The notes beneath the pieces are model-generated. The model saw only the letters and a list, made by a program, of their open reading frames with translations. It made no database searches and was not told the origin of the DNA. A program made the translations under genes and the position numbers. A stretch of 64,000 bases of DNA from positions 32,491 through 96,490 of the forward strand of contig CAYPBP010000002.1 in NCBI GenBank assembly GCA_964408995.1, in the 5' to 3' direction. The DNA comes from an uncultured Gammaproteobacteria bacterium. Lineage in GTDB: Bacteria; Patescibacteriota; Microgenomatia; UBA12405. Shown here one piece after another: positions 2,930-19,248 of the stretch (the first letter of the stretch is position 1; every line of letters begins with the position of its first letter).

Positions 2930-3640
2930 TTTATACCTCAATTACCAACGGTAAAACCATTGGTTGGCGGCCAGTTTAAATTTTTGATATTGCAGATATG
3001 TAATAAAAATTGCAATAATAGTATGTGCTTTATATTCAAAACCCTAAAAATTTTGCAGATAAATTTAAAACAAAATCATCTAGATTGAATAACTGGGATT
3101 ATTCTAAGCCAGGTTTTTATTTCATTACGATAAAAACATTAAACGATAATAATTTTTTTGGAAAAATTATTAATGAAAAAATTGAATTATCGGCTATTGG
3201 TAAAATTGCCAATCAATATTTAATTGATATTTCTAAACATTTTTCAAATGTAATATTGGATGAATATACTATTATGCCAAATCATTTGCATATTCTATTC
3301 CTTGTAGAGACGCCAGATCTGGCGTCTCTACAAAATAATCAAAAAATCACGTTGCTAAATTATAGCCACAATAACCATCCAGATTTTTATAATCGATTGA
3401 ATCAAAAATCAAAACAATTAATTCCAAAAATTATTCAACAATATAAATCATCAGTAAAACGAATTTGTAATCAGAACAATTTATTTTTTGGTTGGCAAAA
3501 TCGTTACTATGATCAGATTATTAAATCTAAACTAGAATTAAATAATATACGTCAATATATTAAAAATAATCCTGTTAATTGGAAAAAATAATTTATACCT
3601 CAATTACCAACGGTAAAACCATTGGTTGACGGCCGGTTTT
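2928..3640 (+). mobile_element. IS200/IS605-like (RAYT-type) Y1-transposase element bracketed by a 50-bp direct duplication
   Basis: Direct repeats at 2928-2977 and 3590-3640 (taatttatacctcaattaccaacggtaaaaccattggttgRcggccRgttt, 2 mismatches). Each contains the imperfect palindrome ccaacggt/accattgg and flanks a HUH-Y transposase gene. Confidence 0.65.
3025..3591 (+). CDS. IS200-like / REP-associated tyrosine transposase (COG1943-type Y1 HUH transposase)
   Basis: GTG start. N-terminal W-x6-G-YF-T-T box (NNWDYSKPGFYFITIKT), HUH motif IMPNHLHILFLV, and C-terminal catalytic-Tyr box WQNRYYDQIIKSK...YIKNNPVNW matching the RAYT/TnpA_REP signature. Confidence 0.8.
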   Translation: MLYIQNPKNFADKFKTKSSRLNNWDYSKPGFYFITIKTLNDNNFFGKIINEKIELSAIGKIANQYLIDISKHFSNVILDEYTIMPNHLHILFLVETPDLASLQNNQKITLLNYSHNNHPDFYNRLNQKSKQLIPKIIQQYKSSVKRICNQNNLFFGWQNRYYDQIIKSKLELNNIRQYIKNNPVNWKK

Positions 3641-5413: not shown

Positions 5414-5992
5414 TTAATTAATTTTACCTAAATAATCTCCAATTTGAGTGAAGTCATTTTGAAGAGACTTAAGCATTTGACCATTTCGCAAACCAGCTGA
5501 AGGATGGTAGACAGGAATAATAATTAAAGGTATTCCCTGCCATTTTGTTTTTACAACTTTTCCATGAACTTGACTGATAAGCTGATCTTTGAAGAAATAA
5601 TTCATGGCAAAACGGCCAAGTGTAATAATTATTTCTGGTTTTATAATTTCAAGCTGTGCTTTTAAATAAGGCACACAGACTGTTATTTCATCAGGATTAG
5701 GATCACGATTTTCTGGAGGACGGTGTTTTAAAATGTTACAAATGAAAACGTCGGATCTATTCAGATTAATCGAGGCTAAAAGTTTATCTAGTAGTTTACC
5801 TGAATTACCGACAAAAGGCAAACCTTGTAAATCTTCCTTTGCCCCTGGAGCTTCACCAATGATTAAAATTTTGGCACTGGGATTACCAAAACCAGGAACT
5901 GGATTGATGGCAGTTTTGGATAAAGAACATTTTTGGCAATCTTTAATTAGAGAAGCGATATAGTCTAGTTTTTGTTGATTTGTTAATGACAT
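5414..5992 (-). CDS. Uracil-DNA glycosylase, family 4 (UdgA-type)
   Basis: [27 protein letters not shown] and HPSAG... motifs. Cys residues for a 4Fe-4S cluster near the N-terminus. Confidence 0.85.
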
Positions 5993-6032: not shown

Positions 6033-6065
6033 GTATATACGCCCCGTACCACGGGGCGTATATAC
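6033..6065 (-). terminator. Intrinsic terminator downstream of the Lon-like gene (repeat family E)
   Basis: 13-bp stem tatatacgcccc(g) / (c)ggggcgtatata with loop taccac, followed on the minus strand by A/T-rich sequence. A near-identical stem recurs at 52424-52455. Confidence 0.6.
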
Positions 6066-6075
6066 TTTAAAATTT

Positions 6076-7137
6076 TTACCACTGAGGTAGATAAGTTTTT
6101 ATATTAGACTCATCGACAATTATTTGTTTTACTTTACCCTCTAGAATAATTTTAGCGGCTTTACGACACATACCTTCAATATTTCTTTGAAGAGTACGAA
6201 CACCAGCATCAAAACCAAGAGGTCTGACAACTTGGGGCCACATATTATCAGCTATTTTAATATCTTGTGATGTTAAACCTGTGCTTTGTAAAGCTTTTGG
6301 CAAAAGATAATCCCTAGCAATAACTATTTTTTCTTCGTCAGTATAGGAAGGCATTTGGATAACTTCAAGTCTGTCCATAACAGCGGTGGCAATTCTGGCG
6401 GTATTGTTACAGGTAGCACAAAAAATGGCTTGTGAAAGATCGACTGGATAGTCTATGTAATGATCAACAAAATGATTATTTTGTTCTGGATCTAGAAGCT
6501 CAACTAAAACACCCATGATGGTGTTTAAAGCGTCATCAGCTACTCTATCGATTTCATCTAATAAGATAACTGGGTTATTGGTTTTACAATTTACTAAACC
6601 TTTAATTATTTGACCTGGCTCAGAGTTGGGAAGAGTACGAGAATAACCACGAAGATAATTAGGATCACCAAGACCACCAAAAGGAATTCTGATTAGTTCC
6701 CTGCCTAAAACTTGAGCAATAGATTTAGCCATAGTGGTTTTACCGGTTCCCACTAAACCAACAAACAAAAGAACTGGAGCCCGAACTGCTTGATCTGGAT
6801 TTCGAACTCTTTGAAGAGCTAAAACAGAAACATATTCTAAAATTCTTTCTTTGATAGAATCTAGACCATAGTGTTCTTCGTTTAATTTTTCTTTGGCATA
6901 AGTAAGATCTAAAATATCTTTGCTTTGATTAGACCAAGGAATAGTAACAACCCAATCAATATATTTAGAAATGTTTTGATAGTTTTGCCAAAAAGTTTCT
7001 TCGTTTTGAGAATTAATTTCTAATTGAGAAAATAACTCTTGCAATTTTATACTTAAATTATCGGGTAATTTGACAGCAGAGACTTTAGTTACAAGTTTTT
7101 GAATCGCCTCTTTAGTAGTTAAAACATTCGTTTCCAT
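6076..7137 (-). CDS. Stand-alone LonA-type AAA+ ATPase module; the Lon N-terminal domain and the protease domain are both absent
   Basis: 353 aa that align collinearly with E. coli Lon residues ~230-590: YIDWVVTIPW, HYGLDSIKERILEY, Walker A GLVGTGKT, Walker B ILLDEIDRV, and sensor/alpha-subdomain ...GVRTLQRNIEGMCRKAAK. The ORF stops where the protease domain would begin, and a terminator follows 10 bp later. Confidence 0.8.
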   Translation of the reverse strand: METNVLTTKEAIQKLVTKVSAVKLPDNLSIKLQELFSQLEINSQNEETFWQNYQNISKYIDWVVTIPWSNQSKDILDLTYAKEKLNEEHYGLDSIKERILEYVSVLALQRVRNPDQAVRAPVLLFVGLVGTGKTTMAKSIAQVLGRELIRIPFGGLGDPNYLRGYSRTLPNSEPGQIIKGLVNCKTNNPVILLDEIDRVADDALNTIMGVLVELLDPEQNNHFVDHYIDYPVDLSQAIFCATCNNTARIATAVMDRLEVIQMPSYTDEEKIVIARDYLLPKALQSTGLTSQDIKIADNMWPQVVRPLGFDAGVRTLQRNIEGMCRKAAKIILEGKVKQIIVDESNIKTYLPQW

Positions 7138-7172
7138 ATTAAAAGTATATGCTATTTAAATCCCAATGTCAT

Positions 7173-7661
7173 TTACACAAAATACTCTTTGACTTCGGAA
7201 AAAGTTTTACCAGCAAGAAAGTTGTTAGCAGAAAAACTTTCATTAGTTACATCTTTTCCAAACCAGTCTGGTGCTTTAAAAGAATCCATTTCTTCTTTTG
7301 AAGAAAATTCTACTTCCACAAAAGCAACTCCAGTTAAATCTGCTTTAAAAATATCTAGTTCAGCCATTAAATTATTATCAAGAGGAATATTGTATCTAAT
7401 TTTTTCTAAAGATCTTTCAGTTAGGGGCCAAAGTTTATTAAATTCATGTTCGGTTAAATAAATATTTACTTCTTCAAAAGCAGAATAGTCACCTTCTTTT
7501 ATGGGTGTTTTTTTAGTTAATTCAAATTTGTCACCTTTTTTTCTTATTCTTAGAGGTGGTTGAGATGAAGAGATATAACCTTGTTTAATTTGACAAGATG
7601 AAAAGGCAGATAAATCATCAGGAATTTTTTTGACTAAAAAAGTTTTTTCGATTTCTAACAT
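7173..7661 (-). CDS. CYTH-domain protein (CyaB / triphosphate-tunnel metalloenzyme family)
   Basis: 162 aa. MLEIEKTFLV start, QGY, RIRKKGDKFELTKK, and the acidic VEVEF motif, as expected for the CYTH fold. Confidence 0.7.
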   Translation of the reverse strand: MLEIEKTFLVKKIPDDLSAFSSCQIKQGYISSSQPPLRIRKKGDKFELTKKTPIKEGDYSAFEEVNIYLTEHEFNKLWPLTERSLEKIRYNIPLDNNLMAELDIFKADLTGVAFVEVEFSSKEEMDSFKAPDWFGKDVTNESFSANNFLAGKTFSEVKEYFV

Positions 7662-18472: not shown

Positions 18473-19210
18473 TTAACGACTAATAGTTGAAAGAAGTTCG
18501 GCGAAGTAATCGACGACTGGAACCACATATGGGTAGTGACATCGAGCTGGGCCGATAACTCCTAAGATTCCTCGATGAGGACCGGCTTCATAAGTTTGAT
18601 AAACAAAACCACATGGCTCGAGATGTTCGAGACCAAGATCTTCACCGATTAAAAGATGGACTATCTCAGGAGATTCTGGATTAAGATTACCAGCTTTGCT
18701 GACAATTTCAAACCAGAAAGTAGCATTATCGATTAAAGATAAAACTGTTTTGGTAACATCGATGTTAAAAAACTCTGGTTCTTCTAATAAATTTGAAGCA
18801 CCATAGTTATAAACAGAACCTTGATCGGTGGTGGCAATGGCCATGGAACGAGTTCGAGTAGCTAACTCTTTGGTAGTTTCGCGAAGTAAGCGATCGAATT
18901 CGTTTCGATATTCCCAAACCTTTTCTTTGGCTCCAATTTCATCGCTAACTGATAAATTTTTTGGGGTCATTAAATTACGGACGTAATATTTAAGACCCAT
19001 GGAAGTTGGAGTGCGACCAGAAGAAAGATGTCCTTTTTTTAAAAACCCCAGCTGGGTAAGAGCCATCATCTCATTTCTTATGGTAGCAGAAGAGATACCA
19101 AGGGAATATTTTTTTTCGAGGGTTTCAGAACCGACAGCATTGGCGGTTTCAATAAATTCCTCGGCGATACATTTAAGTATCTTTATTTGTCTTTGAGTTA
19201 AATCGGCCAT
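18473..19210 (-). CDS. hrcA: Heat-inducible transcription repressor HrcA (short form)
   Basis: N-terminal winged-helix region LTQRQIKILKCIAEEFIETANAVGSETL...SSATIRNEMMALTQLGFL. Order hrcA-grpE-dnaK-dnaJ. Confidence 0.8.
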   Translation of the reverse strand: MADLTQRQIKILKCIAEEFIETANAVGSETLEKKYSLGISSATIRNEMMALTQLGFLKKGHLSSGRTPTSMGLKYYVRNLMTPKNLSVSDEIGAKEKVWEYRNEFDRLLRETTKELATRTRSMAIATTDQGSVYNYGASNLLEEPEFFNIDVTKTVLSLIDNATFWFEIVSKAGNLNPESPEIVHLLIGEDLGLEHLEPCGFVYQTYEAGPHRGILGVIGPARCHYPYVVPVVDYFAELLSTISR

Positions 19211-19211
19211 A

Positions 19212-19248
19212 TTAGCAATATAATAGACCGACTGCTAAATTGTGTCAA
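19212..19248 (-). promoter_or_regulatory. Sigma70-type promoter of the hrcA operon, overlapped by a CIRCE-like inverted repeat (HrcA operator)
   Basis: On the minus strand: TTGACA (complement of 19243-19248), a 17-nt spacer, then TATTAT (complement of 19220-19225). The inverted repeat TTAGCAATA-N9-GACTGCTAA at 19212-19238 matches CIRCE TTAGCACTC-N9-GAGTGCTAA at 15 of 18 positions. The -10 lies about 9 nt from the ATG, implying a leaderless mRNA. Confidence 0.5.

Follow-up and report, generated by a model that had tools for sequence, protein, structure and literature searches.

A protease-less, N-domain-less LonA-type AAA+ ATPase gene and its family in the Candidate Phyla Radiation

The stretch analysed here, referred to as the window, comprises 64,000 nucleotides of contig CAYPBP010000002.1 (assembly GCA_964408995.1, positions 32,491 to 96,490) and carries on its minus strand, at 6076-7137, an ATG-to-TAA open reading frame (ORF) whose 353-residue product is a LonA-type AAA+ ATPase. 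The gene order on that strand runs hrcA-grpE-dnaK-dnaJ, nusA-infB, a DHH-like ORF, rpsO-pnp, a CYTH-like ORF, the Lon ATPase gene, udg (5414-5992), rnj and then proS, with an IS200-like ORF on the opposite strand between rnj and proS; the hrcA-grpE-dnaK-dnaJ assignments are putative, resting on ORF sizes and on the annotation of a related locus, L003. The features recognised within the Lon ATPase gene are given below, with conservation counted over 98 complete family sequences.

6076-7137, minus strand: complete gene for a protease-less, N-domain-less LonA-type AAA+ ATPase, stop codon at 6076-6078 (ORF, Pfam, LonA structures, orthologs, and dN/dS, the ratio of nonsynonymous to synonymous substitution rates)
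6946-7116, minus strand: N-terminal three-helix bundle, residues 8-64, corresponding to the NTD-3H of LonA (E. coli ~253-310; LonA alignment from residue 12, AlphaFold2 (AF2) model)
6352-6906, minus strand: AAA+ alpha/beta (large) subdomain, residues 78-262 (Pfam PF00004, AF2 model, Foldseek TMq 0.74-0.76 to LonA AAA modules)
6736-6759, minus strand: Walker A, G127-LVGTGK133T134, of family form GL.G.GKT where LonA has GPPG.GKT (alignments)
6613-6651, minus strand: pore loop 1, R163-GYSRTLPNSEPG175, with Leu169-Pro170 for the Tyr-Ile of LonA and the family's acidic P-D/E-A/S-E-P-G
6547-6570, minus strand: Walker B, V190-ILLDEID197, with D194 and E195 (alignments)
6511-6546, minus strand: pore loop 2, residues 198-209, RVADDALNTIMG, with Ala at the position of MtaLonA Trp431 and E. 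coli Met431
6406-6408, minus strand: sensor-1 Asn244 (E. coli N473), invariant in 98/98 and outside the search pattern
6370-6372, minus strand: Arg finger Arg256 (E. coli R484), invariant in 98/98
6103-6342, minus strand: alpha-helical lid (small AAA+ subdomain), residues 266-345, including sensor-2 Arg314 at 6196-6198 (Pfam Lon_lid; R314 in 98/98)
6079-6102, minus strand: C-terminal tail ending YLPQW-COOH, aligned to the linker between lid and protease in LonA (E. coli DYLGVQ; alignments, P351, Q352 and W353 invariant in a set of 40 sequences)

A sequence-only reading of this DNA had described a Lon ATPase module without the N domain and without the protease (P) domain, a description that profile, structure and translated searches bear out. 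The protein matches Pfam AAA (PF00004) over residues 123-261 at 62.5 bits (gathering score 21.2) and Lon_lid (PF22667) over residues 285-337 at 42.6 bits (gathering score 27), with no further Pfam domain above threshold and no Lon_C. The NCBIfam LonA equivalog TIGR00763 ('lon') is matched over profile positions 251-571 of 795 only, at 328 bits and under its 608-bit cut-off, PRK10787 scores 248 bits against a cut-off of 891, and no curated family model names the ATPase-only proteins. The closest solved structures are all LonA (B. subtilis 3m6a, E 9e-77; MtaLonA; Y. pestis; E. coli 6u5z; LONP1), residues 253-579 of 6u5z aligning with residues 14-350 of the query. The matching region corresponds to E. 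coli Lon residues ~253-582 and spans the three-helix bundle, called NTD-3H after the nomenclature of PMC9569914, the AAA+ alpha/beta domain and the lid; it reaches the end of the lid as the earlier reading had it, but starts at residue ~12 rather than at the YIDWVV segment, and therefore includes the whole three-helix bundle. Similarly, the last residue, W353, aligns to E. coli Lon ~582, so that the ORF ends ~3-10 residues short of the start of the P domain and not about 15. In tblastn searches of the window with E. coli Lon, the AAA part alone is matched (6088-7101, 37% identity), and neither its N domain (1-250) nor its P domain (586-784) nor ClpP is found anywhere in the 64 kb. An AF2 model (pLDDT 77.9, pTM 0.69), a check that the same reading had proposed, features three N-terminal helices (H8-20, H26-44, H46-64), a Rossmann-type alpha/beta domain and a helical lid, and each of its best 50 Foldseek matches in the PDB is a LonA AAA module (highest TMq 0.76).

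Relatives were collected with a DNA-level family pattern (G..G.GKT, 38 residues, EPG, 12 residues, NP....DE), which finds the window gene and three orthologous loci and does not find E. coli lon. Scanned over one genome per GTDB species, it returned at least 120 loci, about 105 of them belonging to the Lon ATPase-only family, and 98 complete sequences gathered in this way form the conservation set. Sensor-1 N244, the Arg finger R256 and sensor-2 R314, none of which is fixed by the pattern, are each invariant in all 98, and the Walker A Lys/Thr and Walker B Asp-Glu are present in pattern-independent representatives as well. Conservation is highest in the AAA+ core, where the mean column entropy is 1.20 bits compared to 2.66 for the first 55 residues. 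Judged by these residues, the protein probably binds and hydrolyses ATP.

The gene is intact and under strong purifying selection, with its ATP-binding and hydrolysis residues conserved. Against its two closest orthologs (92-93% amino acid identity, dS 0.46-0.54) its dN/dS is 0.081-0.083, in the range of the neighbouring pnp (0.098) and rnj (0.067), rpsO being at 0.044. The alternative that the earlier reading had left standing, a decaying lonA remnant or pseudogene created by truncation, draws on the loss of two of the three LonA regions and on an ORF that stops at the lid-to-P linker. The length, however, is constant over more than 200 orthologs drawn from several candidate phyla, the catalytic residues are invariant, and tblastn with four Lon P domains and four N domains finds no trace of either in the flanks (4-10 kb) of about 105 family loci, nor is there P-domain debris downstream in the window. 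A frameshifted protease domain downstream, which the earlier reading itself had named as the sign of a pseudogene, is likewise absent from these loci, as is a separate one. Four genuine LonA genes picked up by the same pattern (L023, L078, L105, L112) were readily detected in that search, and a separate search with the P domain of one of them, from the Candidate Phyla Radiation (CPR; L112), gave as its best 120 matches generic Lon fragments without informative names. Because of the constant length, the dN/dS of 0.08 and the debris-free flanks, we reject the remnant reading, to which we assign a negligible probability.

The family extends well beyond the window. The closest clusters, at least 120 of them, share 73-100% identity and are nearly all exactly 353 residues long, one (P0001) being 100% identical to the window product; where a name is given, it reads 'AAA family ATPase', from Ca. 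Shapirobacteria or Woesebacteria, or, in JGI records, 'ATP-dependent Lon protease'. HMMER searches against 1.8 billion representatives recover the same truncated architecture at 39-58% identity, in proteins that always stop at the lid and whose variable N-terminal extensions are low-complexity and P/Q-rich rather than LonN. In the pattern scan the roughly 105 members have ORFs of 340-470 residues, and every complete ORF ends 224-234 residues past Walker A. Their record titles, which for metagenome-assembled genomes (MAGs) are partly unreliable as organism names, include Ca. Shapiro-, Woese-, Levy-, Roizman-, Ames- and Daviesbacteria, WWE3, Dojkabacteria/WS6 and 'Patescibacteria group'. Members share derived motifs, with GL.G.GKT replacing GPPG.GKT and RPLG(F/Y)D.G(I/V)R replacing Y(T/V)REAGVR, and a neighbour-joining tree unites the family minus the intermediate P0235 in one clade, recovered with or without P0235 in 64 of 100 bootstraps (distances 1.11 between groups, 0.73 and 0.70 within them). 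Motifs and tree together point to a single origin, and they argue for a mostly monophyletic family spread across the Microgenomates, WWE3 and Dojkabacteria branch of the CPR.

Several observations made during the scan concern individual records. L006, L008, L012, L013 and many TPA 'binchicken' MAG loci are titled 'uncultured Gammaproteobacteria / Pseudomonadales / Saccharibacteria bacterium', yet they are of Microgenomates type (GC fraction 0.33-0.47, order rpsO-pnp-LonAAA-rnj), and the organism names in these titles (Gammaproteobacteria, Pseudomonadales, Saccharibacteria) look unreliable. One assembly (CAZBWW01) holds two family members on separate contigs, L037 and L079, one pnp-linked with a WWE3-type C-terminus and the other groES-linked and of Roizman type; they are either true paralogs or the product of a chimeric bin. 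The pattern also matches a different AAA family of Rhodocyclaceae and Burkholderiales (L009, L011, L042, L050, L073, L093, L068, L115; 330-540 residues, GC fraction 0.57-0.66, 'LLVGPAGIGKTE ... AGSEAFWSNSEPG'), which is only distantly related to the Lon ATPase-only proteins, likewise stops shortly past the ATPase module, and carries a Cys-rich motif in its long, unrelated N-terminal region. Finally, the Lon proteases P0122, P0124, P0125, P0127, P0128 and P0137 (960-1230 residues) show an unusual 'stacked' architecture in which two or three tandem LonA-type AAA+ modules precede a single protease domain, with a hydrophobic N-terminal segment by which they are apparently membrane-anchored.

The earlier statement that the Walker motifs and sensors look intact stands, but it overlooked a change in the pore, where the Tyr of pore loop 1 (E. 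coli Y398) has become Leu169. LonA has RGHRRT-Y-I-G-(A/S)-(M/L)-PG in this loop and the family RG.S(R/K)..-P-(D/E)-(A/S)-E-PG: the column equivalent to Tyr398 is among the most variable (F20, S16, H15, Y9, L8 and others; 3.26 bits) and holds L, R, N, H or Y among close Shapirobacteria, the Ile399 equivalent is mostly Pro, and the equivalents of Gly400 and Met402 are Asp/Glu and Glu. In pore loop 2, the RGDP segment of LonA is replaced, the position of MtaLonA Trp431 included. In MtaLonA, Tyr397 and Trp431 touch the substrate and are needed to degrade the model substrate Ig2 (PMC8503904). As LonA depends for threading on aromatic pore-loop residues that are not conserved here, the term 'unfoldase', which the sequence-only reading had offered next to chaperone for a functional derivative, appears doubtful, although selection and conservation uphold the functional derivative itself.

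Compared to LonA (endopeptidase La, MEROPS S16.001; E. coli Lon, B. subtilis LonA, MtaLonA, LONP1), the family combines a preserved motor with extensive losses. It shares 37-44% identity over the NTD three-helix bundle, AAA+ alpha/beta domain and lid, together with Walker A and B, sensor-1, Arg finger, sensor-2, the LDPEQN..F.DHY pre-sensor-1 hairpin and an overall fold that the AF2 model places at TMq ~0.75; it differs in having no PUA-like N domain, no NTD-5H/coiled coil and no Ser-Lys protease domain, in the Leu-Pro of the window protein for the pore-loop-1 Tyr-Ile, in the replaced pore-loop-2 RGDP, in a P-loop lead-in of GL.G rather than GPPG, and in falling under the TIGR00763 and PRK10787 equivalog cut-offs. 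By definition every Lon has a P domain after its A domain (PMC9569914); the family is therefore not a Lon protease, and the JGI label 'ATP-dependent Lon protease' for its members is wrong. Like LonC of Meiothermus taiwanensis (S16.007), it derives from Lon and has lost one of the two enzymatic activities, though in the converse sense: LonC is an active protease with an inactive ATPase (PMC9569914), whereas here the ATPase residues are kept and the protease is gone. The boundaries nearly equal those of the engineered E. coli Lon AAA+ fragment 6n2i, whose residues 13-339 align to residues 14-350; 6n2i and the B. subtilis AAA-P construct 3m6a, however, were made in the laboratory by truncating a protease, whereas the window gene occurs naturally, is under selection and encodes remodelled pore loops. 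An assignment as an anti-phage AAA ATPase was considered and rejected, the PADLOC matches being partial and weak (DolB, 2e-12 over 75-257; IetA, 4e-7 over 54-149) and the gene context a housekeeping one.

The genomic surroundings were compared in a census of 99 family loci, in which neighbours other than RNases were named by eye from their sequences. Of the 66 loci whose upstream sequence extends for 1.5 kb or more, 32 have PNPase at -1 or -2 on the strand of the family gene (median gap 47 bp); of the 57 that reach 2.5 kb or more downstream, 35 have RNase J at +1 to +3 (median gap 31 bp). This pnp-rnj arrangement, usually in the order rpsO-pnp-X-(udg)-rnj, is common to the Shapiro, Woese, Levy, Ames, Davies and WWE3 subgroups, and the gene order of the window recurs in other Shapirobacteria and Woesebacteria, with the Lon ATPase gene 8 kb downstream of hrcA-grpE-dnaK-dnaJ in both the window and L003. 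Elsewhere the context changes: in the Roizman-type subgroup (9 loci) the family gene is divergently adjacent to groES-groEL, Dojka-type genes lie downstream of a SufS-like gene and Woese-type genes downstream of a PfkB-type kinase. By sequence, the recurrent neighbours resemble Ctc/L25, Jag, YidC, FtsA, LOG, Nudix, PfkB-type kinase, SufS, dCTP deaminase and ThyX; no peptidase recurs beside the 99 loci, the neighbour clusters being judged by eye from their sequences. The nusA-infB-rpsO-pnp and rnj-ftsK groups are old housekeeping blocks of Gram-positive-type bacteria, and the RNase linkage may therefore reflect inherited synteny rather than functional coupling. Two signals flank the gene in the window:

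6033-6065, minus strand: stem-loop with a 15-bp stem, 10 nt past the stop codon, a possible terminator or RNA-stability element (dG -26.4 kcal/mol, z -6.4)
7144-7172, minus strand: promoter-like ATGACA-17-TATACT, its -10 element ending 6 nt before the ATG at 7137 (consensus match alone, 10/12)

The sequence-only reading had placed a terminator 10 bp past the gene, followed by udg; the hairpin and udg are where it put them, while the U-tract and the support of a terminator scan are missing, the scan having passed over the stem-loop because its tail on the gene's strand is A-rich and not U-rich. With a terminator-like site after pnp (7703-7682) and a promoter-like site of its own, the Lon ATPase gene may be transcribed separately, and, no Shine-Dalgarno sequence preceding its ATG, it may be expressed as a leaderless mRNA.

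Other elements of these loci are recorded here for completeness. The CYTH-domain ORF (7173-7661, minus strand, 162 residues, Pfam CYTH 26 bits) has an EIEK motif close to its N-terminus and precedes the Lon ATPase gene by 35 bp; it holds this position only in close Shapirobacteria relatives (L126). The IS200/Y1-transposase-like ORF (3025-3591, plus strand) has a weak Pfam Y1_Tnp match, and a similar ORF of 190-191 residues is likewise placed in L002 and L086. A CIRCE-like inverted repeat, TTAGCAATATAATAGACCGACTGCTAA, at 19212-19238, with 3 mismatches to the consensus, stands directly upstream of the putative hrcA ORF (18473-19210, minus strand) and probably serves this CPR genome as its HrcA operator; it is the single CIRCE-like site of the window, none being found at the Lon ATPase gene, for which heat-shock control thus gains no support. 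The groES-adjacent family loci contain no full CIRCE, and a conserved motif TTGTCAAG.GG...(N)...TCTGCTAA(C), seen a few nucleotides before the ATG of the groES-adjacent family genes (L007, L027, L041, L046, L074, L079, L091, L111), may be a promoter or operator.

The likeliest role for the family, which we put forward with moderate confidence, is that of a non-proteolytic ATP-dependent chaperone or remodeller in proteostasis. The protein descends from LonA and retains its NTD three-helix bundle, its lid and the alpha/beta domain that binds the nucleotide, whereas the N domain that recognises substrates and the Ser-Lys protease domain are gone; according to this model, it would bind and hydrolyse ATP, probably as a ring, and would act without proteolysis, comparably to the protease-independent chaperone-like activity reported for Lon. 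A chaperone or remodeller appears likelier than a processive unfoldase feeding a protease because the pore loops have lost their aromatic-aliphatic grip and become acidic. An AAA+ ring can be functional without an aromatic pore loop, as in p97 D1. The chaperone role is favoured by Lon descent, by the groESL or dnaK neighbourhood in part of the family, and by LONP1, where ATPase and not protease activity is reported to be critical for chaperone-like, anti-aggregation action (PMC8368198). The proposed mode, though not homology, resembles that of ClpB/Hsp104 or p97 D1 in its ATP-driven protein remodelling without attached proteolysis; unlike in those proteins, with which homology is limited to the AAA+ fold, there is a single ring module and no M-domain, and any coupling to DnaK would be hypothetical. 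Several points weigh against this reading. A 2026 preprint assigns the chaperone-like activity of LonP1 to its N domain, independently of the ATPase (10.64898/2026.05.06.723147), and the N domain so credited is missing here. The commonest neighbours are RNA-decay genes and not chaperones, and about 30% of members retain Phe or Tyr at the pore-loop-1 position, so that threading would be possible in those lineages. Hexamer assembly without the P-domain ring is putative, as is a function read from sequence. The invariance of K133, T134, E173, P174, G175, D194 and E195 in the 98 sequences is partly imposed by the DNA pattern, and the searches for a partner peptidase covered the 64-kb window and 4-10 kb flanks of about 105 loci.

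Such a partner is the core of a rival explanation, in which the family forms a Lon-derived ring that unfolds substrates or hands them to a peptidase encoded at another locus. Candidates for that peptidase would include ClpP, an HslV-like enzyme and a Lon P domain made as a separate protein, and the ring would possibly dock through a C-terminal [FY][LIVM]P.[WY]-COOH tail as other AAA+ proteases do with HbYX or IGF motifs. AAA+/peptidase systems split over two proteins are common, P351, Q352 and W353 are invariant in 40 Shapirobacteria-type sequences, the full tail motif is kept in the Shapiro, Woese, Levy and Ames subgroups with a terminal aromatic residue recurring in several subgroups, and the members with Phe or Tyr in pore loop 1 would suit a threading ring. 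Yet the pore-loop aromatic residue is not conserved across the family, other subgroups end differently (YYLPQ, LPDQGPLS), and the conservation of the tail, which aligns with the ordinary lid-P linker of LonA (DYLG...), may have structural reasons. Together with the census, in which no peptidase gene recurs, and with the window and flanks described above, free of a Lon P domain and of ClpP, this makes a split protease unlikely in our estimation.

A further rival, drawn from the gene context, casts the protein as an RNA-decay accessory ATPase, which would be expressed together with PNPase and RNase J and would remodel or regulate these enzymes or their ribonucleoprotein substrates. The strength of this proposal is the short-gapped linkage to pnp and rnj in six subgroups. 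Against it, the nusA-infB-rpsO-pnp ... rnj-ftsK synteny is old and the linkage may reflect descent; udg, Nudix and other unrelated genes are interleaved; the window has a terminator-like site after pnp and a promoter-like site before the gene; the neighbours are different in the Roizman-, Dojka- and Woese-type subgroups; and an acidic pore would be poorly suited to RNA binding. We regard it as rather less probable than a split protease. A more specific variant, to which we give slightly lower odds still, is a non-threading AAA+ 'degradosome' factor, in which a co-transcribed pnp-X-rnj unit would supply an acidic pore that remodels PNPase/RNase J complexes or basic protein-RNA substrates; if true, an AAA+ 'degradosome' factor in minimal bacteria would have no known precedent.

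Our literature search, which was not exhaustive, found no paper on this family, on a protease-less Lon or on Lon in the CPR, and we rate the proteins as a sizeable, phylogenetically coherent and uncharacterised family of Lon-derived ATPases. Whether the ATPase of Lon has a 'chaperone-like' role of its own is still debated (PMC8368198 versus 10.64898/2026.05.06.723147), and a branch of the CPR that keeps the Lon motor under strong selection, minus protease and N domain, offers a natural test of a lone Lon AAA+ ring. Characterising the family would correct the JGI 'ATP-dependent Lon protease' labels and broaden the scant knowledge of how ultra-small bacteria manage protein quality control.

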